Assembly: GCF_988243305.1 (NCBI RefSeq)
Contig: NZ_OZ547136.1
DNA length: 64,000 nucleotides
Strand: one strand, 5' to 3'
Shown here: positions 12,836 to 61,234 of the stretch, one piece after another
How the letters are laid out: each line of letters begins with the position of its first letter
How positions within the stretch are numbered: position 1 is the stretch's first letter
Program-made: the position numbers and the translations under genes
The notes under the pieces: generated by a model
Told to the model about the DNA's origin: nothing
Database searches by the model: none
What the model saw: only the letters and a program-made list of their open reading frames with translations

Positions 12836-13399
12836 GTGCTGACAACGCAAAAACGAAAATTTGCGCTGGCGCTCATGTCCGGGAAAAACAAAACAGCGTC
12901 AGCCATTGCCGCCGGTTATTCGGCGAAGACCGCCAGGGTTAAAGGCTCGCAGCTGGCAAAAGATCCTGAGGTGCTTGCGTTTATAGCCCGTAAACAATGC
13001 GAGACGGTGGAGGTGGATGAGGTTCCTGTTTACCGGCAGAAAAAATCAGAGCAGGAGGATAAACCCCGTCGCCGTGAGGCGGCTGCAATACCACAGCCGG
13101 ACGAAAACAATCTGGAGATGCCACCGTCCGCGGTGATGTCTCCTGGTATTGAATATATGGAGGATGGTCTTCCCGATCCGGTGAAAGCCATGGGGCGGAT
13201 CCTGGTGGAAAACCTCTGCATTGATCCGAAACTGGCACTGGATGCGGCCTGGCGTCTGGCGCAGTTCACGCACCATAAAAAAGGGGATACCGGGAAAAAA
13301 TCGGCAAAAGGTGATGCCGCGAAAAAAGCGGCTAACCGTTTTGCGGTGCCACCGCCCCCCCGACTGGTGGTGAATAACGATAATGAGGGCAACGGATGA
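12836..13399 (+). CDS. Terminase small subunit (P27-family-like)
   Basis: N-terminal helix-turn-helix-like region (KRKFALALMSGKNKTASAIAAGYS); sits directly before the large terminase subunit with a 4-nt overlap. Confidence 0.7.
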   Translation: MLTTQKRKFALALMSGKNKTASAIAAGYSAKTARVKGSQLAKDPEVLAFIARKQCETVEVDEVPVYRQKKSEQEDKPRRREAAAIPQPDENNLEMPPSAVMSPGIEYMEDGLPDPVKAMGRILVENLCIDPKLALDAAWRLAQFTHHKKGDTGKKSAKGDAAKKAANRFAVPPPPRLVVNNDNEGNG

Positions 13400-15057
13400 T
13401 ACCTGTATGGAGCACAGCCTGCCCGGACTGGGCAGAGCGCCTGAAAAAGGGGCTGTCGATTATTCCGGATCCGATTTATCCGGACGAGGCCGCACATGCC
13501 CTGGCGATTTTTAAACAACTGCGGATTGTGGATGCACCTGGTAGCCCTACGTTCGGGGAGTCCTGTGCACCGTGGGTGTTTGACCTGGTGGCGGCCCTGT
13601 TTGGCTCCTACGATGCGCAGACCGGTGTACGCCATATCAAGGAAGTTTTTATCCTTATCCCCAAGAAAAACTCGAAGTCCACGCTGGCCGCGGGGATCAT
13701 GATGACTGCACTGTTACTGAACTGGCGGCAGGCGGCGGGTTACACGATTCTGGCCCCGACTGTGGAGGTGGCGGCCAACGCCTTCAACCCTGCCCGGGAT
13801 ATGGTACGACGTGACGATGATCTGGATGACCTCTGCCAGGTACAGACCCATATCCGGACCATCACCCACCGAGTGACGGACACCACCCTGAAGGTGGTGG
13901 CAGCCGATCCGAATACGGTGTCCGGTATCAAGTCCGTGGGTACGCTGATTGATGAGTTGTGGCTGTTTGGCAAGCAGTGCAAGGCGGAGGACATGTTACG
14001 TGAAGCCATAGGCGGCCTTGCCTCCCGCCCGGAAGGGTTTGTGGTGTATACGACCACCCAGTCGAATGAACCGCCCGCCGGGGTGTTCAGACAGAAACTG
14101 CAGTACGCCCGGGATGTGCGCGACGGCAAAATTCATGATCCGCACTTTCTGCCGGTGATATTTGAACACCCTCCTGAAATGGTGGAAAGCGGGGCTAACC
14201 TGCTGATGGAAAACCTCGCCATGGTCAATCCGAATCTCGGCTATTCAGTGGATGAGGCCTTTCTGTACCGGGAGTACCGTAAAGCCCGGGAAGCCGGTGA
14301 AGAGACATTCCGGGGGTTCATGTCAAAACACGCCAATGTGGAAATTGGTCTTGCCCTGCGCTCTGACCGCTGGGCGGGGGCTGATTTCTGGGAAGAGCAG
14401 GGCCGTTGTATCAGCCTGGACGATATCCTGCGTCGTGCTGATGTGGTGACGGTGGGGATTGACGGCGGAGGGCTGGATGATCTGCTGGGGATGTATGTGA
14501 TTGGGCGTGACCGGGAGACCCGCGAATGGCTGGGCTGGGGCCATGCCTGGGCGCATGAAACCGCGGTGGTCCGACGGAAGAGCGAGGCGTCCCGGTTTCA
14601 GGATCTTGTTGCCTGTGGAGATATGACCATTGTCCGGCGTGTCGGGGATGACACGGCGGAAGTGGCGGAATATGTGCGTCGCATTCATGAGGCTGAGTTA
14701 CTGGACCATATCGGTATTGACCCGTCAGGGGTGGGGCAGATTCTGGATTCACTGGCGGAAGCCGGGATCCCCGACGGAATTGTGGTGGGGATAAGCCAGG
14801 GCTGGAAACTGGGCGGGGCCATTAAAACCACCGAGCGCAAACTGGCTGAAGGGGTGCTGGTGCATGGTGACCAGCCCCTGATGGCCTGGTGTGTCGGCAA
14901 TGCCCGGGTGGAGCCTAAAGGTAACGCCATTCTTATCACCAAACAGGCCAGTGGACGGGGAAAAATTGACCCGCTGATGGCGCTGTTCAATGCGGTCTCC
15001 CTGATGTCCCTTAACCCGGAACCGAAAAAGAAAGAATATGCGGTTTTTTTCATATAA
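13396..15057 (+). CDS. Terminase large subunit
   Basis: 553 aa; Walker A-like ILIPKKNSKST; acidic C-terminal nuclease-like half; size and position. Confidence 0.85.
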   Translation: MIPVWSTACPDWAERLKKGLSIIPDPIYPDEAAHALAIFKQLRIVDAPGSPTFGESCAPWVFDLVAALFGSYDAQTGVRHIKEVFILIPKKNSKSTLAAGIMMTALLLNWRQAAGYTILAPTVEVAANAFNPARDMVRRDDDLDDLCQVQTHIRTITHRVTDTTLKVVAADPNTVSGIKSVGTLIDELWLFGKQCKAEDMLREAIGGLASRPEGFVVYTTTQSNEPPAGVFRQKLQYARDVRDGKIHDPHFLPVIFEHPPEMVESGANLLMENLAMVNPNLGYSVDEAFLYREYRKAREAGEETFRGFMSKHANVEIGLALRSDRWAGADFWEEQGRCISLDDILRRADVVTVGIDGGGLDDLLGMYVIGRDRETREWLGWGHAWAHETAVVRRKSEASRFQDLVACGDMTIVRRVGDDTAEVAEYVRRIHEAELLDHIGIDPSGVGQILDSLAEAGIPDGIVVGISQGWKLGGAIKTTERKLAEGVLVHGDQPLMAWCVGNARVEPKGNAILITKQASGRGKIDPLMALFNAVSLMSLNPEPKKKEYAVFFI

Positions 15058-36852: not shown

Positions 36853-37521
36853 CTATTTTTTCCCTGAAGCGGAAAACATTACTACAGTACCTTGAACCTT
36901 GGTTTTAACATTCTCGAAATGCTCTGAGAGTATATGTGTTAAGCCTTCTTCGGAATCTTTTGTGTTTGAAAAGATGCCTTTCTGATTGTAAATGCGCATC
37001 AGTTTTTGACCGAAGCTATTGTGCACAACTCCATCGCCAAGAATTGTGGCTCCGTATAGAGTTCCATCGTCAGTTAAGGCCTGCGCCGCATTGCGTATTA
37101 CACAGCTTTTTGTAGATATATTTCCAGGCAGGCAGTGAAGAAGGTAAAACATGGAAATGGAATCAAATTGACCATGTAACGCCGCGGGATAAGGTTCAAA
37201 AACATCATGGCTAATTTTATGTTTAATTTTTGATTCCCCAGCCCTTGTAGATGCCGCGTTCAGGCTAGCTTCGTTCAAATCCATTAAAGATATCAGACTA
37301 CTCTCAGGTACGTGAGTAAGGTAAAACCCAGTTCCAACACCAATATCCAGATGGTTGTTACCTACATGTTCCAGAAAGTGTGGAAGAAGGTGTTCCTTTG
37401 TAGGACATCCCCATGCAAGCCGATTTGATACTCCCAAAACCCACCAGTCATAAAGCTTTAGGGTAAGTGGTGTGTAAATTTTAGCCCCATCATCTGTGTT
37501 TTTTTTCATTGATTTCACCAT
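36853..37521 (-). CDS. Class I SAM-dependent methyltransferase (moron)
   Basis: Motif I LDIGVGTGFY, acidic post-I residue, motif FDSISMFYLLHCLP; AT-rich, opposite strand to the tail genes. Confidence 0.7.
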   Translation of the reverse strand: MVKSMKKNTDDGAKIYTPLTLKLYDWWVLGVSNRLAWGCPTKEHLLPHFLEHVGNNHLDIGVGTGFYLTHVPESSLISLMDLNEASLNAASTRAGESKIKHKISHDVFEPYPAALHGQFDSISMFYLLHCLPGNISTKSCVIRNAAQALTDDGTLYGATILGDGVVHNSFGQKLMRIYNQKGIFSNTKDSEEGLTHILSEHFENVKTKVQGTVVMFSASGKK

Positions 37522-37577
37522 GTTATAGTTTTATTTGTGAATTAAATCAATTATGGCGATGAATTACAAGGGGTTAA

Positions 37578-37847
37578 ATGCTGCCGCAGCATAGCGATAT
37601 TGAAATAGCCTGGTATGCTTCGATACAGCAGGAGCCGAATGGCTGGAAGACCGTCACCACACAGTTCTACATCCAGGAATTCAGTGAGTATATTGCGCCA
37701 CTGCAGGATGCTGTAGATCTGGAAATCGCAACGGAGGAAGAAAGATCGTTGCTGGAGGCATGGAATAAATATCGGGTATTGTTGAATCGTGTTGATACAT
37801 CAACTGCACCTGATATTGAGTGGCCTGCAAATCCTGTCAGGGAGTAA
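37578..37847 (+). pseudogene. Tfa C-terminal fragment (duplicated 3' end of tfa)
   Basis: Last about 50 codons and 3' UTR (37692-37896) are about 90% identical to tfa 36643-36847; N-terminus unrelated. Confidence 0.6.
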
Positions 37848-38443
37848 TCATTGGGATTATGCCGCAGACACGTCGTATGCAGGAACGTGCTGCGGTTAGT
37901 TTGTGAGCTTTCGATAGTGGTTGTTATTTTTGCCCTTATTTGTTCCGGAGGCCATGGTTCAATGGTCCGTCTGCCCCCTGTGGTGATGTCAGCAAAATCA
38001 GCCACTGCGCGAACCACAATAGCCCGGGAAGATGCTGAAGATCACCAGGTAAAGCTGTCAGCGCAGAAACTGGAAGAACTGCTCGCATCAATGGTTAAGG
38101 ATGAGGTTGATCGCAATGATGGGATTTATTGACGTCAGCGAGAGCAGAAGGAAGAACTGAATAACCTGAATGATTTACGCTCAATCAGAGCGATGATGAT
38201 TGGCAGTAATTAGCGGTCAATTTCGGTTTTTTTGGCTGTGCGCTCCCCGCCCAGCATTGCGCGTCAATTAGCCCCAAAAAAACGAAAAAGTTACAATCAA
38301 GTAAAAAATTCCTTCTGCAAAACTAAAAAAGATTTCAATAAAATCAGACAGTTAAAAACATAAAAAAAAGTACAAAAAAACATCTCAAAGTCTTGTTTTT
38401 TGCTTCAAATACAATTGGTTATTGTGTTTTTTGAAACCTACCA

Positions 38444-38560
38444 GTGTGGTACATGGATATCGATACCACCGCCAATTATAAGCTGGGCGGTGCACAGCAA
38501 CACGATAGCGTACGCCTCGATCCGTGGGTGTTTATGTTCTCAGCAGGATATCGTTTTTAA
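38444..38560 (+). other. ompW: 3'-terminal fragment of ompW at the prophage right junction (attR region)
   Basis: In-frame translation VWYMDIDTTANYKLGGAQQHDSVRLDPWVFMFSAGYRF* matches the OmpW C-terminus as I recall it; an in-frame stop lies at 38432, so the upstream part of the gene is absent here. Confidence 0.7.
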
Positions 38561-38574
38561 TTCCGCACAAAAAC

Positions 38575-38595
38575 GACCCCGTAATATACGGGGTC
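38575..38595. terminator. Bidirectional terminator hairpin between ompW and yciE
   Basis: GACCCCG-TAATATA-CGGGGTC between convergent genes. Confidence 0.6.
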
Positions 38596-38619
38596 AATAA
38601 GGACATGGTATAAAGGGTA

Positions 38620-39126
38620 TTATTTCTTCGCTTCTACGCCATCAGTTTCAGAGCGAATTAAAAATTTCTCAGTTGTTTGCGGAATATGCTGAATCAGCCA
38701 GTCGGCCATTTCTTTTTCCTCATTTAAAATCGCTTCGATGGTTGGAATTGAAGCTGTATCACCGGCATTTTTTGCTGCTGCTAATAGTGAGGTGTAACAG
38801 GCGATTTCAAATTGCTCGAAGACATATCCGCTAATAGAGCCTTTGACTATTTCATCAGAAGGGAATATACCACCGATTGACTGCCCAAGCGCAGCCATTT
38901 TACTCATGGAATCTTTAATGACTGAACGTGAAATGTCATTACGATCAAGAATAGTTTCCAGTTGAACAATCTGGTTTTTGGTTTCACTAAGATGTTGTTC
39001 AATACGAGCGCGTAGTTCAGGATAATTATCTATACGACTAGCCATGGATTCAAGCATAGATTCGGCTTGCTTTTCCATTGCGTGGGCGTCACGTAACCAG
39101 TCATGATAATGTTCAATACGATTCAT
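38620..39126 (-). CDS. yciE: DUF892 ferritin-like stress protein YciE
   Basis: 168 aa; conserved position in the yciE-yciF-yciG-trpA order; which paralogue is which is inferred from length and order. Confidence 0.8.
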   Translation of the reverse strand: MNRIEHYHDWLRDAHAMEKQAESMLESMASRIDNYPELRARIEQHLSETKNQIVQLETILDRNDISRSVIKDSMSKMAALGQSIGGIFPSDEIVKGSISGYVFEQFEIACYTSLLAAAKNAGDTASIPTIEAILNEEKEMADWLIQHIPQTTEKFLIRSETDGVEAKK

Positions 39127-39171
39127 GAAAATGTCCTCTTTATAAAATGACTAAAAGTTAAAGTTCATATT

Positions 39172-39672
39172 TCAGGCTTTATTTTCGGCTTTCTTATTTA
39201 CGTTATTAAGTGCCAGATCAGTCAGTTTGATGTCGGTGGCCTTTTCTTCTTCAAGAGTTTCTTTCAGAAGTTTCGCTGCTTTACGGTAACCTAATTGTTC
39301 AGCCAGCGTCGCTAAGATCCCGTAACTGGCGATCTCATAGTGCTCGACTTTCTGTGCAGCGGCAATCAGTGCGGCATCACGTACTTCGTTTTTCTCGGTA
39401 CTTTCGATGACCTCATTAGCTTCTTCAATGAGACCTTCCATTGCCACACATTTCATGCGCTTAATTTTCAGATTCGATTCAGATTCCACAACTTGATCAA
39501 TACGTTCAATCTGTCCATGTGTTTCCTCGAGGTGCGCATGAAAAGCCTGACTTAATTTTTCGTTTGATGTTGCTCTTGCGAGTTTTGCCAGTGCCCGGGT
39601 TAATTGTTTTTCTGCGCTGTAGGTATCAGAAAGCAGGTGAATAAAGACATCTTCAATGGTCTTCATATTCAT
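39172..39672 (-). CDS. yciF: DUF892 ferritin-like stress protein YciF
   Basis: 166 aa from MNMKTIED; paralogue of the neighbouring gene. Confidence 0.8.
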   Translation of the reverse strand: MNMKTIEDVFIHLLSDTYSAEKQLTRALAKLARATSNEKLSQAFHAHLEETHGQIERIDQVVESESNLKIKRMKCVAMEGLIEEANEVIESTEKNEVRDAALIAAAQKVEHYEIASYGILATLAEQLGYRKAAKLLKETLEEEKATDIKLTDLALNNVNKKAENKA

Positions 39673-39757
39673 ATTTTTCTCCAGTGGAATCACTGCGAGC
39701 CATACGGCCCGCAGATGAAATTATCTTTATCAGCTGATATTAATAATTAACGGTGAA

Positions 39758-39937
39758 TCAGGATTTGCCTGATTTATTACCACCGCTTTGTTGACCGCCT
39801 TTTTTACCCGCTTCAGATGCGCGTTGCGGATCATTTTTAAAATTACCGCCGCTATGCTGACCGCCTTTACGGCCTGCGTCGGATGCCTTCTCACGGTCTT
39901 CGGCGAAATTTCCTGAACCACCACGATGTTCGGCCAT
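39758..39937 (-). CDS. yciG: KGG-repeat stress protein YciG
   Basis: 59 aa with repeated GGxSGG/KGG motifs. Confidence 0.85.
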   Translation of the reverse strand: MAEHRGGSGNFAEDREKASDAGRKGGQHSGGNFKNDPQRASEAGKKGGQQSGGNKSGKS

Positions 39938-40317
39938 GTTATTTCTCCCGTTGCGTTGCATTGTTTGATTAATATGAGTGTTGTGTGTCGACACTCATTA
40001 AAATTAGTCGCTAATGAGAATTAGTCAAATTAAGCGTAACGAGAAGAAAGTGGGAAAATATATTATGAGGAACGTTCTGGATATATTAACAATTGCCTGA
40101 GGAATAAGTGACTTAGAGAAAATTATTTATTTTACTGGTGTTATGTTGCGGGATTAATTTGTTTGATTATATTACTGTTGGGCGGAAAAATAACGTAAGT
40201 TGACGTTCGACAGGGGTAAGCGAAACGGTAAAAAGATAAATATAAAATGAATTTAGGATTTTTCCGGCTTCGTTAAAGAAAGTTAAAATGCCGCCAGCGG
40301 AACTGGCGGCTGTGGGA

Positions 40318-46869: not shown

Positions 46870-46896
46870 AAAAAAAAGCCCGCTCATCAGGCGGGC
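46870..46896 (-). terminator. trp attenuator (3:4 terminator hairpin plus U-run)
   Basis: On the minus strand: AGCCCGCCTGATGAGCGGGCTTTTTTTT between trpL and trpE. Confidence 0.95.
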
Positions 46897-46939
46897 TGGG
46901 TATCTGATTGCTTTACGCATGGTGAATACACTGCCCGTT

Positions 46940-46984
46940 TCAGGAAGTGCGCCACCAACCTTTCAGTACGAAAATTGCTTTCAT
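46940..46984 (-). CDS. trpL: trp operon leader peptide
   Basis: Minus-strand ORF encodes [14 protein letters not shown] with tandem Trp codons. Confidence 0.97.
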
Positions 46985-50753: not shown

Positions 50754-51629
50754 ATGAGCGAAAAGCTACAGAAAGTGCTGGCGCGTGCCGGCCACGGTTC
50801 TCGCCGTGAAATCGAATCTATTATTGAAGCCGGTCGTGTGAGTGTTGATGGCAAAATTGCTAAACTCGGCGATCGTGTTGAAATTACCCCTGGATTGAAA
50901 ATCCGTATCGATGGTCACCTGATTTCGATACGTGAGTCCGCTGAACAAATTTGTCGCGTTCTGGCCTATTACAAACCGGAAGGTGAGTTGTGTACCCGTA
51001 ACGATCCGGAAGGACGGCCAACGGTATTTGACCGTCTGCCAAAACTGCGTGGCGCACGCTGGATTGCCGTGGGTCGCCTGGACGTTAATACCTGTGGTCT
51101 GCTGCTGTTCACCACCGATGGTGAACTGGCAAACCGTTTAATGCACCCAAGCCGTGAAGTTGAACGTGAATATGCCGTGCGTGTATTTGGTCAGGTTGAC
51201 GACGCGAAACTGCGTGATTTGAGTCGTGGCGTGCAGTTGGAAGATGGTCCGGCAGCCTTTAAAACCATCAAGTTCAGCGGCGGCGAAGGGATCAACCAGT
51301 GGTACAACGTAACTCTGACCGAAGGCCGTAACCGTGAAGTTCGTCGTCTTTGGGAAGCGGTTGGTGTGCAGGTAAGCCGCCTGATCCGTGTTCGTTACGG
51401 TGATATCCCACTGCCAAAAGGTCTGCCACGCGGTGGCTGGACGGAGCTGGACCTCGCTCAGACTAACTATCTGCGTGAACTGGTGGAACTGCCACCAGAA
51501 ACCAGCTCTAAAGTCGCTGTAGAAAAAGACCGTCGTCGCATGAAGGCGAATCAGATTCGTCGAGCGGTGAAACGTCATAGCCAGGTGAGCGGTGGTCGCC
51601 GTTCTGGCGGACGTAATAATAACGGTTAA
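50754..51629 (+). CDS. rluB: 23S rRNA pseudouridine synthase B
   Basis: 291 aa; S4 domain then RsuA-type pseudouridine synthase core; Arg/Gly-rich C-terminus. Confidence 0.92.
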
Positions 51630-51649
51630 TTTAAGTTAAGTATAAAATA

Positions 51650-51672
51650 AAGGCCCTGCGGGGCCTTTTCTT
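51650..51672 (+). terminator. Rho-independent terminator after rluB
   Basis: AAAGGCCC-TGCG-GGGCCTTTT followed by T-rich tract. Confidence 0.7.
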
Positions 51673-51798
51673 CATTTGAAGTATGATAAATAGTCGCAGT
51701 ATTTTAATTTAATTTCATACTTGCTTATGAATATTACCAGGAAATAGCCACATTACTATTTAATTATCTGAGATAAACTCAACGTCAAGAGGTGGGTT

Positions 51799-52800
51799 AT
51801 GATTAGATATAGTGGAATATTTCTATCGCTGTTAATGCTTTCAGGTTGTGCAACTGAAGCATTGAAAAACGAACAAGCTGAAACTGTTATTACTGCGGGT
51901 AACAAAGCAGTAGCGGCGAATGCAAGTTTCTTTAAACAATACTATGCTTCTCGTGAAAACTTCCTTGTTAATTTTTATGCGACTAATCCGGATTGTGCAT
52001 TGCGACCTGATTATACCATTGATATAGGCGGTGATGGGAATGGCGGAAAATTATGCCAGCGTTCAGGGCCAAATACAAAACAAGTACAATTAGTCCCTTT
52101 CGAGAAAGAAAAATTACTGGCTTCAATGGAAGTCATTAATAGCATGAGCGCTTATGTGGAACTTCTGACAAAGGATATGGCAACTACGGAAAGTCAGCAA
52201 GTGGCATTACTTAAACAGGCTCTGGATCACGCAAACAACGCACAAACACTACTTGGTGTTTCACATAGCAAAGATTTAGCTCAATCTGCAGCAGCGGTTA
52301 AAGATTTGGTAAATTATTTCAATGAGTTATATATAATTAAAGTCAATTCTGGAAAAATAGGCAAAACGGCAGATGAAAACTGGGTAAGACTTATAAAGAA
52401 CATGGCGGTTTTGCGCAATGATATTTATACAAAAAGCAATAAGATTGAAAATTATACCTTTGCGAATGTGCATGATAATATGTTTTATTATAATACGGCA
52501 TCTAAAAACTCTAAGAATACAGAGTTTAACACTCTGAAAAACAGGAAGGAGTTTCTAAGTTCAGTAATCAATGTGAATGAAACCAGACTACAGGCATCGG
52601 CACCTGCCATGCCTGCGATTGAGGCTTTAAATGCCTTTATAGATAAGGGTGATTATCTAAAAAGCTTATACGTTAATAAAACACGCACGGCAGCTGAACA
52701 AAAAAGATTAAATGAAATATTACGCGCACAGGTCATTAGTGGGTTAAAGGCGTCTGAGGGGCTGGCAAAATTACTTATTGCCAGCGGAATAATGTTATAG
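51799..52800 (+). CDS. Hypothetical lipoprotein (333 aa), AT-rich accessory gene
   Basis: Signal peptide with lipobox LSGC; Asn/Lys-rich; about 35% GC by eye; no recognisable domain. Confidence 0.6.
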   Translation: MIRYSGIFLSLLMLSGCATEALKNEQAETVITAGNKAVAANASFFKQYYASRENFLVNFYATNPDCALRPDYTIDIGGDGNGGKLCQRSGPNTKQVQLVPFEKEKLLASMEVINSMSAYVELLTKDMATTESQQVALLKQALDHANNAQTLLGVSHSKDLAQSAAAVKDLVNYFNELYIIKVNSGKIGKTADENWVRLIKNMAVLRNDIYTKSNKIENYTFANVHDNMFYYNTASKNSKNTEFNTLKNRKEFLSSVINVNETRLQASAPAMPAIEALNAFIDKGDYLKSLYVNKTRTAAEQKRLNEILRAQVISGLKASEGLAKLLIASGIML

Positions 52801-52810
52801 GAGGCTTTTT

Positions 52811-53119
52811 ATGAACGATGTGCAAAACCGTAGAATACTGGCATTACTTGATATGCTGTATAATACTTTGGGTAATAAAACCACATGTAATGTTTGTCAT
52901 AAATATTTTATCCATATCCTCACAGTTATGAACAACCTGACGATTAACTATGGTACTGAAACTTCGCCAGAGTTAGCCGGGATAAATTATGACGATGCTA
53001 ATGCGTTAATTACTGAACTGATATTATTTATTGAAGATGTTGACGCTGAGAATCATGAAGCATATCCGGGACATTTGAATGAGATTACACGTATTCTGAA
53101 TTTCGCTATTGCCGCTTGA
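52811..53119 (+). CDS. Hypothetical small protein (102 aa), co-transcribed with the upstream lipoprotein gene
   Basis: Strong RBS AGGAGG 7 nt upstream; 10-nt spacing from the upstream stop; acidic C-terminal half. Confidence 0.55.
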   Translation: MNDVQNRRILALLDMLYNTLGNKTTCNVCHKYFIHILTVMNNLTINYGTETSPELAGINYDDANALITELILFIEDVDAENHEAYPGHLNEITRILNFAIAA

Positions 53120-53134
53120 ATATAATCATGATTA

Positions 53135-53168
53135 AAGCACCTCAAGAGGCTTCTTTTGAGGTGCTTTC
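53135..53168. terminator. Bidirectional terminator hairpin between the islet and btuR
   Basis: AGCACCTCAAGAGGCTTCTTTTGAGGTGCT inverted repeat. Confidence 0.65.
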
Positions 53169-53170
53169 AC

Positions 53171-53761
53171 TTAGTAGTCAATCCCTATCTGCGCTTTTAC
53201 ACCGGCATCAAACGCATGTTTCACGGGGCGTAATTCACTTACCGTATCCGCCAGTTCAAGTATATCCCGATGACAACCACGACCCGTAATAATGACGGTT
53301 TGCTGATGTGGACGTTCATTTAACGCCTTCACCACTTCTTCCAGTGGCAAATAATCATACGCCACCATATAAGTCAGCTCATCGAGCAAAACCATATCCA
53401 GTGAAGGATCGGCCAGCATTCGTTTGGCATGTTGCCAGACTTCACGGCAGGCCGCGGTATCAGATTCGCGATTTTGTGTATCCCAGGTAAAGCCCGTTGC
53501 CATCACCTGAAACTCAACGCCATGTGGCTCCAGTAGATTGCGCTCGCCATTAGGCCAGGTGCCTTTAATAAACTGCACGATACCCACTTTTTTGCCATGG
53601 CCTACTGCACGAGTTGCCGTACCAAATGCCGCGGTGGTTTTGCCTTTTCCATTGCCGGTAAAAACGATGATAATACCGCGTTCATCCTGGGCCTGGGCCA
53701 CACGAGCATCGACTTTTTCTTTCACTCGCTGCTGACGCTGTTGGTAGCGTTCATCACTCAT
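53171..53761 (-). CDS. btuR: Cob(I)alamin adenosyltransferase
   Basis: 196 aa; P-loop GNGKGKTT. Confidence 0.92.
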   Translation of the reverse strand: MSDERYQQRQQRVKEKVDARVAQAQDERGIIIVFTGNGKGKTTAAFGTATRAVGHGKKVGIVQFIKGTWPNGERNLLEPHGVEFQVMATGFTWDTQNRESDTAACREVWQHAKRMLADPSLDMVLLDELTYMVAYDYLPLEEVVKALNERPHQQTVIITGRGCHRDILELADTVSELRPVKHAFDAGVKAQIGIDY

Positions 53762-59234: not shown

Positions 59235-60233
<999 letters not shown>

Positions 60234-60551
60234 TTTCTTGCGTTATTTTCGGCACCTTTTATGTAGCGAAGGTGCCGGAATATATTCTCTTTTGTTGCTT
60301 ATTTGTATACCGTGCACAATATTTTTATCCCTCATATTTATAGGGTAAATTACCTGTAAAGTAGTGTCTAATTACCCGCCTCGCAAACTCGAGTTTTCAA
60401 ATATCTATTTCAGGTCAAAAGATTGAATTATTCACTGGAGACGATTCGTAAATTCGCTGGATTTTTGACTAAAGTTTCTTTAGGATTTGTCTCATCGTAT
60501 GATTAATTACACCAATCGTTCAACGTCTTGCTGATAAGTGATGGCGATTAT

Positions 60552-60692
60552 ATGAGGTTAGCAATGCCTTCTGGAAATCAGGAACCCCGCCGCGATCCTG
60601 AATTAAAACGTAAAGCCTGGCTGGCGGTTTTTCTTGGTTCTGCACTTTTCTGGGTGGTTGTCGCACTGCTGATTTGGAAAGTGTGGGGATAA
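60552..60692 (+). CDS. ymiA: Small membrane protein YmiA
   Basis: 46 aa, single TM segment; conserved position. Confidence 0.6.
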   Translation: MRLAMPSGNQEPRRDPELKRKAWLAVFLGSALFWVVVALLIWKVWG

Positions 60693-60694
60693 CT

Positions 60695-60862
60695 ATGGTC
60701 GGTCAGGAGCAACTGGAGTCGTCACCATTATGCCAGCATAGTGACAATGAAACAGAAACGAAACGGGAATGTTCCGTCGTTATTCCAGACGACTGGCAAC
60801 TAACATCGCAGCAGCAAGCCTTTATAGAACTGTTTGCTGAAGATGATCAGCCGAAACAATAA
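60695..60862 (+). CDS. yciX: Small protein YciX
   Basis: 55 aa, acidic; start 3 nt after the ymiA stop. Confidence 0.6.
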   Translation: MVGQEQLESSPLCQHSDNETETKRECSVVIPDDWQLTSQQQAFIELFAEDDQPKQ

Positions 60863-61234
60863 TTATCATCATTCTTATTACCCATTTTTAATGAATTACA
60901 GGGCTTTTAATACACCGCAGCAATAACAGGTTGAGTTATCTCAACACAAAGTAATAACCGTTAAAGGTGTAGCCTATGATCAACACAAATATGAAATATT
61001 GGTCCTGGATGGGTGCATTTTCTCTGTCGATGCTCTTCTGGGCCGAACTCCTCTGGATCATTACTCACTGATCCCTGACCCCGCTGCGGCGGGGTTTTCA
61101 TTTGCTTTGCCACAAGGTTTCTCCTCTTTTATCAATTTGGGTTGTTATCAAATCGTTACGCGATGTTTGTGTTATCTTTAATATTCACCCTGAAGAGAAT
61201 CAGGGCTTCGCAACCCTGTCATTAAGGAGGAGCT

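Follow-up and report, generated by a model that had tools for sequence, protein, structure and literature searches.

In a 64,000-nucleotide (nt) stretch of contig NZ_OZ547136.1 (hereafter the window), the segment 51630–53170 is a two-gene operon of ~37% GC that fills the gap between rluB and btuR. Its two open reading frames (ORFs) encode a lipoprotein, ORF-A, and a small acidic protein, ORF-B. By sequence comparison, both proteins belong to no described family; what we can establish is the family and its population genetics, and no mechanism. Our best guess, held with low confidence, is that the pair forms an envelope-acting exclusion or protection module in which the second protein serves as a chaperone or regulator. 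We favor an envelope-conflict reading because three features combine: a hypervariable clamped loop in the lipoprotein, ancient allele classes, and relatives that are carried as cargo.

Both genes lie on the + strand. ORF-A (51799..52800) encodes a 333-amino-acid (aa) prolipoprotein and ORF-B (52811..53119) a 102-aa acidic protein with a pI of 4.6; the ORF list gives the same coordinates and lengths (333 and 102 aa) as a preliminary description of this DNA, which had placed the two genes correctly. The genes are only 10 nt apart. An AGGAGG ribosome-binding site (52799..52804, + strand) overlaps the ORF-A stop codon and lies 6 nt 5' of the ORF-B ATG, and from this arrangement ORF-A and ORF-B are predicted to be translationally coupled. 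Hence, the strong AGGAGG site and the tight coupling described earlier are both borne out. Upstream of ORF-A, a Shine-Dalgarno-like AAGAGG could be read from the sequence 6 nt 5' of the start codon (51787..51792, + strand). GC content along the segment is 0.34-0.40, compared with 0.50-0.55 for rluB and btuR, which agrees with the low GC noted before, and the segment is the lowest-GC kilobase within the window. At third codon positions, GC is 0.31-0.32 for the pair versus 0.46-0.47 in the flanks.

ORF-A possesses the signal peptide and lipobox ([LVI][ASTVI][GAS]-C) by which bacterial lipoproteins are recognized. Its N terminus reads MIRYSGIFLSLLMLSG-C17, where residues 1-16 are the signal peptide, LSGC is the lipobox, and Cys17 is encoded at 51847-51849; residues 4-22 are the sole hydrophobic peak of the protein. 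The lipobox cysteine is kept in 39/39 family members, and the preliminary description was right to call this a lipobox lipoprotein and, given the lipobox and the coupled 10-nt spacing, a compact, envelope-targeted pair. In E. coli, an Asp at position +2 prevents sorting to the outer membrane (the Lol avoidance rule). ORF-A has Ala at +2 and Thr at +3, and the Ala predicts that the protein is anchored to the outer membrane via Lol. The mature protein is 316 aa long, has a pI of 8.9, and is predicted to be all-helical apart from one beta-hairpin.

Only four residues of ORF-A are invariant in the 39-member family alignment: the lipobox Cys, Cys66 (51994-51996, + strand), Cys86 (52054-52056, + strand), and Tyr119. 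The same 39 sequences were needed for a usable AlphaFold AF2 model (m48085f9019fb; predicted local distance difference test [pLDDT] 75.1, predicted template modeling score [pTM] 0.70), whereas a 13-sequence alignment reached a pLDDT of 53 and was unusable. The model consists of long helices in stacked bundles, with a beta-hairpin (strands 73-77 and 93-97) around the cysteine pair and a hydrophobic C-terminal tail at low confidence. Cys66 and Cys86 are predicted to form a disulfide that clamps a hypervariable loop and hairpin. This region, residues 71-105 (52009..52113, + strand), spans Cys66/Cys86 and is where entropy among Escherichia alleles peaks (1.0-1.16 bits, compared with 0-0.16 bits at residues 1-65). 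A second peak of variation among these alleles falls at residues 185-245. Across the whole family, residues 71-105 are also the chief indel hotspot, with insertions after residues 76 and 93.

We surveyed 5,426 complete E. coli genomes for the operon. The islet is present in 1,237 (23%), while 4,183 (77%) have an empty, K-12-type rluB–btuR junction. The allele in the window (allele 1) is full length in 424 genomes, and 815 have another, allele 2. In K-12 MG1655 and in CFT073, the islet is absent and rluB and btuR are 39 bp apart. The pair is therefore accessory, as proposed in the preliminary description: it is missing from K-12 and from most E. coli, and neither protein has homology to a housekeeping family. 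We noted that the 39-bp empty-site spacer (2729-2767 of K-12 locus L004; 11328-11366 of CFT073 locus L023) has its own hairpin, GCCGGAcgtcatATCCGGC, which looks like a REP-type palindrome and has no relation to either terminator of the islet. Because the spacer carries its own, different hairpin, the empty state is not the product of simple precise excision. Occupancy is patchy even inside phylogroup B2, in which CFT073 is empty and strains of sequence type 131 (ST131) carry allele 2. UniRef names also place the pair in uropathogenic E. coli (UPEC) 536 (A0A454A3M6_ECOL5) and Shigella sonnei (A0A7Z1IAW2_SHISO).

Allele 2 encodes proteins of 340 and 102 aa that are 64% (ORF-A) and 73% (ORF-B) identical to those of allele 1, and a third class (P0014), also at the rluB–btuR site, is 66% identical to alleles 1 and 2. 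There are thus at least three allele classes, with 57-61% identity to one another outside a common 5' segment, compared with 48-55% to Citrobacter. The common segment comprises the upstream region and ORF-A codons 1-72 (51630..52014, + strand). Here, alleles 1 and 2 are 97-98% identical in nucleotide sequence, the first 72 residues of ORF-A are identical between alleles, and ~800 genomes match the islet of the window over query positions 1-385 only. The proportion of synonymous differences (pS) between alleles 1 and 2 is 0.10-0.21 over codons 1-80 and 0.5-0.9 downstream. Because synonymous divergence is low in this tract too, it reflects recombination and not merely a conserved domain, and these comparisons put a recombination breakpoint inside ORF-A near 52014. 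Between allele 1 and allele 2 genomes, the synonymous substitution rate (dS) is 0.15 in rluB and 0.44 in btuR. This suggests that allele-linked divergent DNA reaches into btuR on the right and that its left breakpoint lies within ORF-A.

Selection on the two genes was assessed from the same alleles. The ratio of nonsynonymous to synonymous rates (dN/dS) for ORF-A is ~0.25 between alleles 1 and 2, with dS saturated, and for ORF-B the proportion of nonsynonymous differences (pN) is 0.14-0.20 versus a pS of 0.68-0.92. Because dN/dS is this low for ORF-A and pN is well under pS for ORF-B, both genes are taken to be functional and under purifying, rather relaxed, selection. The alleles must be far older than E. 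coli because their synonymous divergence is near saturation, compared with a dS of 0.15 in rluB. Several individual copies deserve mention. Strain M114 (L002, 2670-3692) has a mosaic allele in which ORF-A is interrupted by an internal stop and ORF-B is intact; an IS1 transposase occupies the islet site in one genome (hit H20, strain Ec-U3); and many database copies of ORF-A end prematurely at contig ends. A plasmid hit (H23) at first resembled a divergent allele with 33% identity. We rejected it as an indel-ridden chromosomal locus in which rluB and btuR are frameshifted too: its source, L016 (CP054249.1, 'plasmid pBone4_2'; 33 kb), is a frameshift-filled chromosomal fragment of the trp-rluB-btuR region.

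The locus is old beyond E. coli. E. albertii-type alleles have the same pair at the rluB|btuR site, and Citrobacter has an orthologous pair at its rluB|cobO site, with identities of 51-54% (ORF-A) and 62-65% (ORF-B). Homology with Citrobacter extends to the rluB terminator, two upstream blocks, and the ribosome-binding region and, in one locus, to the downstream hairpin stem. Taken together, these comparisons indicate that the cassette was already at the rluB|btuR site when Escherichia and Citrobacter split; on the simplest reading, the locus is an old resident, and recombination in the flanks has removed or replaced it time and again. The islet junctions coincide with the rluB and btuR stop codons. 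We found no integrase, transposase, or other mobility ORF in 51.6-53.2 kb, no tRNA in 44-60 kb, and no target duplication at the junctions, so the locus in the window lacks the mobility gene, tRNA target, and flanking repeat of a classical genomic island or integrative element. One candidate duplication, a 16-nt direct repeat (CGTAATAATAACGGTT at 51612-51627 and CGTAATAATGACGGTT at 53285-53300), was discarded as a chance match, its second copy being 115 bp inside btuR. On the other hand, the cassette has low GC relative to its host in E. coli, Citrobacter, Yokenella, and the host of a prophage-borne copy (L009, described below), and because GC stays persistently below that of each enterobacterial host, an ultimately foreign origin is indicated. 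Of the earlier proposal of a horizontally acquired insert, the foreign origin therefore stands, as low GC suggests, but the acquisition was not recent: in Citrobacter, the pair occupies the corresponding site and its junctions are homologous, and there is no integrase, tRNA, or duplication.

To find more distant relatives, we ran an exhaustive profile search over 1.84 billion representatives. It returned 56 matches, including ~35 full-length distant lipoprotein relatives of 324-357 aa, and a signal sequence ending in Cys was seen in 15/15 relatives whose sequences were read. The family spans Enterobacteriaceae to Methylomonas and GC-rich soil bacteria, and its genomic settings differ. First, the L009 copy lies within a PSP3/P2-like prophage, between the tail-completion gene S and the baseplate gene V. 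These two genes are adjacent in PSP3 (68 bp apart), and in P2 the slot is filled by the non-essential Orf30; it is one of three P2-type moron regions (PMC6823313). Cargo between conserved S and V, the mark of a P2-like moron, is a property of the L009 copy and not of the copy in the window. Second, the Raoultella copy (L029) is part of an island with an integrase, AlpA, insertion sequence (IS) elements, and HicB. An FRG-domain protein of this island (3398-4330), 3.7 kb from the cassette, is a strong match (E = 2e-52) to PDC-S15, a candidate system in PADLOC, and a weak AbiC-like gene (12876-13544) is also present. Third, the Methylomonas cassette adjoins VapBC, Fic, and a Y1 transposase. Meanwhile, the Yokenella cassette is a bare AT-rich islet between the core genes dinB and nqrM. 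A pattern scan of ~100,000 species-representative genomes with a three-member alignment found Yokenella only (alignments of six members or of the whole family were too diverse to be scanned in this way). A tblastn search of 50,697 INPHARED phage genomes found no relative, nor did three scans of IMG/VR contigs or a search of BFVD structures. On these searches, the cassette family is rare. Its prophage and island settings mark it as mobile-capable.

The variable loop and the range of hosts bear on one rival explanation, namely that ORF-A is a surface or periplasmic antigen that interacts with the host: it would be a helical lipoprotein, exposed or shed, similar to the Borrelia type, TraT, or Bor/Iss, with effects on colonization, serum/complement resistance, or adhesion, diversity driven by immunity, and ORF-B as its chaperone. 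Secretion chaperones are typically small acidic proteins of ~100 aa. The occurrence of the pair in human-associated ST131, UPEC 536, and Shigella sonnei fits this explanation, as do the deep allele classes and the hypervariable disulfide-clamped loop. However, relatives in Methylomonas, in soil and environmental metagenomes, and in GC-rich free-living bacteria make vertebrate immune selection implausible, CFT073 is empty, and B2 genomes, rich in extraintestinal pathogenic E. coli, are mostly not uniformly occupied. The Borrelia lipoprotein matches of the ORF-A model are generic four-helix-bundle matches at 8-9% identity. We regard a host-antigen role as unlikely.

The second gene is as constant a feature of the family as the lipoprotein. 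A partner ORF of 96-107 aa lies 1-25 nt downstream in E. coli, Citrobacter, Yokenella, Raoultella, Methylomonas, the L009 prophage, and several metagenomic contigs, and almost every distant lipoprotein relative inspected has a small partner gene immediately downstream. Because the partner gene is conserved beside distant relatives, the two-gene cassette is the unit of inheritance. Most partner proteins are acidic, and they have in common an N-terminal helix motif, M..xQK..L.D.L..L...C, with one conserved Cys. The exception is the GC-rich relative L013, whose downstream gene (2171-2980) encodes a 269-aa protein with approximately four C-terminal transmembrane helices; possibly, this protein is a form of the partner that is anchored in the inner membrane. 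ORF-B itself has neither a signal peptide nor a transmembrane segment (maximum KD19 0.93). Its C26-x2-C29-H30 (52886-52900) and H88 are invariant within Escherichia and Citrobacter. We considered this CxxCH as a heme-c or zinc motif and rejected it: the motif is limited to these two genera, distant partners have a single Cys, and there is no export signal. No member of the partner family has any annotation, and neither ORF-B nor the family profile has a Pfam or PDB match.

A tightly coupled pair whose allele classes co-vary could be a toxin/immunity or addiction module, as the preliminary description had suggested among other roles, and the allele classes would then be pairs that do not cross-protect. 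The conserved N-terminal segment of ORF-A, followed by a divergent remainder, and the presence of VapBC, Fic, and HicB near some relatives are compatible with such a module. The low synonymous divergence of that conserved 5' segment, however, points to recent recombination and not to a delivery domain. Neither protein has a toxin, immunity, Rhs, contact-dependent inhibition (CDI), type VI secretion system (T6SS), or type II toxin-antitoxin domain, no secretion-system or lysis gene is nearby, and rluB and btuR are the only neighbors. Since ORF-A is predicted to be exported and ORF-B to be cytoplasmic, neutralization of a mature toxin is unlikely, and clean loss in 77% of genomes gives no sign of addiction. 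The M114 allele, with its ORF-A pseudogene and intact ORF-B, is uninformative either way. Without a toxin or secretion-system domain, without T6SS or CDI neighbors, and with predicted compartments that differ, the toxin/immunity suggestion is not upheld, and we now consider it improbable.

Database searches with both proteins and with the family profiles gave no significant match in Pfam, NCBIfam, PADLOC, PHROGs, or PDB sequences, which extends the earlier remark that neither protein contains a recognized domain. ORF-A has no Pfam match at E <= 10, and in PADLOC-DB 2.0 no family is matched at E <= 1 by either protein, nor by the Raoultella homologs. PHROG matches of ORF-A are confined to the signal peptide region (E 0.05-0.13). 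Public copies are named only 'hypothetical protein', 'lipoprotein', or 'membrane protein', and the searchable literature has no mention of the RefSeq accessions, of the locus together with 'lipoprotein', or of a comparable cassette. A Foldseek search against AFDB50 returned family members together with proteins of equal length auto-labeled DUF3829, imelysin-like, or lipoprotein, at template modeling (TM) scores of 0.5-0.75. Helical bundles match non-specifically, and the top DUF3829-labeled match is from Yokenella; this entry is probably the Yokenella lipoprotein with the downstream partner, so its label is possibly circular. The ORF-A model also matched periplasmic four-helix-bundle sensor and ligand-binding domains (Tar/Tsr, PcaY, TorS, NarQ), but only in part and at 5-11% identity, and these matches could not be told apart from those to de novo designed bundles.

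These fold matches raise the possibility that ORF-A is an unremarkable periplasmic lipoprotein, with a binding or stress function and a structure of the DUF3829 (YiiG)/imelysin-like class; it would bind a small ligand, a metal, or some part of the envelope and play no part in conflict. Such a protein would be dispensable and hence lost in most E. coli, and its diversity would be old neutral divergence of a locus that is under weak constraint and silenced by H-NS. The AFDB50 matches are full length (TM 0.5-0.75, labeled DUF3829, imelysin-like, or lipoprotein), the model resembles periplasmic four-helix-bundle ligand-binding domains, the neighbors in E. coli, Citrobacter, and Yokenella are housekeeping genes without mobility genes, and a dN/dS of 0.25 is purifying selection overall. 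Yet this lead fails at the sequence level. None of the 39 family members matches the DUF3829 or imelysin Pfam models at E <= 0.1, and neither ORF-A nor the family has a significant match to the DUF3829 profile PF12889/YiiG; in hhalign, the family alignment and K-12 YiiG score a probability of 4.5% with the lipobox alone aligned. There is likewise no match to the imelysin-like (Peptidase_M75) profile or to solved imelysin-like structures, and DUF3829 in the searchable literature leads to unrelated papers only. The label of the Yokenella entry may be circular, as noted, and an ordinary lipoprotein leaves the conserved partner gene, the cargo contexts, and the three allele classes unexplained. 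We judge this explanation unlikely on balance, although the support for a conflict role is circumstantial and a mundane periplasmic protein is a real chance.

The non-coding DNA of the islet is also conserved. Hairpins flank the unit on both sides (51649-51668 and 53134-53167), confirming the terminators reported in the preliminary description. The left boundary is a rluB-proximal terminator hairpin (51649..51668, + strand; AAAGGCCC-tgcg-GGGCCTTT plus a T-run), found in a terminator scan and with an RNA folding energy (dG) of -16.4; its stem is kept in the Citrobacter loci and missing from the K-12 empty site. The right boundary is a hairpin with a 15-bp stem (53134..53167, both strands) between the ORF-B and btuR stop codons. 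It folds with a dG of -23.3 (z = -4.9) on the + strand and -19.3 (z = -4.6) on the - strand and is predicted to be a bidirectional terminator; its stem, AGCACCTC...GAGGTGCT, is common to alleles 1 and 2 and Citrobacter L008. Between the left terminator and ORF-A lie two further elements. In the first, ATAAATAGTCGCAG (51686..51699, + strand), 13/14 positions are invariant between the E. coli alleles and Citrobacter; the block, also written ATAA[AT]TAGTCGCAG, is invariant between the two in that form. The second is a perfect inverted repeat, TTCATA-N6-TATGAA (51714..51731, + strand), 68-85 bp upstream of the ORF-A ATG. It is found once in the window, where the chance expectation is 0.10 allowing <=1 mismatch, and is present in every E. 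coli allele fetched, while both Citrobacter loci deviate by 1-2 bases. This suggests a candidate operator for a dimeric regulator. Both elements stay conserved although synonymous sites of the downstream genes are saturated, and a GGTGGG-YTATGA block at the ribosome-binding region of ORF-A is likewise kept in Citrobacter. A consensus scan found no sigma-70-like promoter on the + strand upstream of ORF-A. As for the proposal that the unit has its own AT-rich promoter region, the 170 bp upstream are AT-rich as described, but they hold no sigma-70 consensus site on the + strand. An Rfam scan found no RNA family within or adjoining the islet.

The missing consensus promoter invites a further explanation, that the islet is a remnant, decaying or selfish, that does nothing for the cell today. 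Seventy-seven percent of E. coli do without the pair with no obvious consequence, and there are occasional pseudogenes and one IS1 disruption. Against this, both ORFs are intact in >1,000 genomes, the proteins are conserved across genera despite saturated synonymous divergence, and the conserved non-coding blocks and the family-wide Cys pair and lipobox have been retained. A remnant is very improbable.

We return to the envelope-acting exclusion or protection module; the exclusion or defense role named in the preliminary description is still plausible. In the mechanism that we propose, the lipoprotein, acting from the periplasm or the outer membrane, would bind and block a fast-evolving external antagonist; candidates for the antagonist are a component of an entering phage, a bacteriocin, and an effector delivered by contact, and the variable Cys-clamped loop would serve as the recognition surface. 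The mode of action would be like that of Cor, Llp, or TraT-type lipoproteins, with a different and much larger fold. ORF-B would most likely be either a dedicated chaperone or holdase that engages the precursor of the lipoprotein ahead of export, or a regulator of the operon. The conserved upstream inverted repeat may place the operon under transcription-factor control, and its AT-richness may lead to H-NS silencing in laboratory conditions. Two further observations speak for this module: the three allele classes found at a single site diverge almost as deeply as E. coli does from Citrobacter, and relatives ride as prophage-moron and integrative-island cargo. A more elaborate version is a two-compartment envelope conflict system, in which the loop would recognize a component of a phage, bacteriocin, or neighboring cell, the cytoplasmic partner would act in deployment or a downstream response, and frequency-dependent selection would keep the empty site and the three or more allele classes as a trans-species balanced polymorphism at a fixed place in the chromosome. 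We hold this version to be doubtful.

Several points weigh against an exclusion or protection role. First, neither protein has homology to any exclusion or defense protein in PADLOC, PHROG, INPHARED, IMG/VR, or BFVD. Second, the link to phage is one single prophage (L009), and the neighbors in E. coli, Citrobacter, and Yokenella are plain housekeeping genes. Third, the role of ORF-B as chaperone or regulator is pure inference, and we know of no exclusion lipoprotein that accounts for a cytoplasmic partner. Fourth, a dN/dS below 1 overall demonstrates no positive selection, and the diversity could be old neutral divergence plus recombination. Fifth, confidence in the ORF-A model is only moderate (pLDDT 75), and the fold matches of a helical bundle are non-specific. 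Finally, the S-V slot differs from the cos-proximal P2 hotspot that was validated as antiviral by Rousset et al. (PMC9122126).

The surroundings of the islet in the window are those of a core locus. Its left neighbor is rluB (50754-51629), and btuR (53171-53761) is convergent with ORF-B, its stop codon at 53171. The core context trp-yciV-yciO-yciQ-rluB is confirmed by a tryptophan operon leader (46870-46963, - strand; Rfam RF00513, 91.6 bits). The window also contains the late region of a lambdoid prophage (13396-36214; GC 0.55-0.62), which encodes a large terminase, a capsid/protease fusion, a portal, a tape measure, a J-like central fiber, and a side tail fiber. This prophage is unrelated to the islet because core genes (the trp operon region, yciV/O/Q, and rluB) take up the ~15 kb between them. 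Further blocks of low GC (0.40-0.44, under the window average) are found at 6001-7000, 37001-40000, and 60001-61000.

The operon occurs in ~23% of complete E. coli, including pandemic ST131, yet both of its proteins are still called 'hypothetical'. Ancient recombining alleles at a fixed site, a hypervariable clamped loop, and mobile relatives are the usual marks of cell-surface conflict genes. If exclusion or protection is the true role, the pair would represent a new protein architecture for envelope-level immunity, with a possible influence on phage-therapy host range in clinically important clones; if the two-compartment version is true, ST131, S. sonnei, and other major lineages would possess a new locus for exclusion or for telling self from non-self. 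Should the pair prove to be no more than a periplasmic binding protein, its interest would be modest and would lie mainly in showing that polymorphism can be long-lived in a gap of the core genome. The cassette is readily testable, as the site is naturally empty in K-12 and two or three alleles occur in nature.

Lastly, we compared the cassette with known systems. DUF3829 (YiiG)/imelysin-like proteins are similar in length (~330-350 aa), in their N-terminal lipobox, and in being all-helical, with TM scores of 0.5-0.75 to AFDB models. YiiG differs in that it has a long Pro/Ala-rich linker and no Cys66/Cys86 pair, and no partner gene is annotated beside yiiG. Unlike Tar/Tsr, PcaY, TorS, and NarQ, ORF-A lacks a signaling output domain and is anchored by a lipid instead of transmembrane segments. 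P2 Orf30 occupies the same S-V cargo position as the cassette in L009 but is a single 261-aa gene on the opposite strand and has no sequence relationship to it (hhalign probability 0.2%). The closest functional parallels are accessory AT-rich cargo genes for outer-membrane-directed lipoproteins, namely Cor (phi80, N15, HK022), Llp (T5), TraT (F-like plasmids), and Bor/Iss (lambda). Genes of this type are carried as morons in or beside tail-gene regions, and they are single small genes of ~60-240 aa without a partner gene. Although our cassette differs from them in its 316-aa helical-bundle mature lipoprotein and its obligatory partner, with no sequence, profile, or PHROG similarity, it resembles them as an AT-rich, accessory locus for an envelope lipoprotein, and its L009 relative sits in just such a moron slot.

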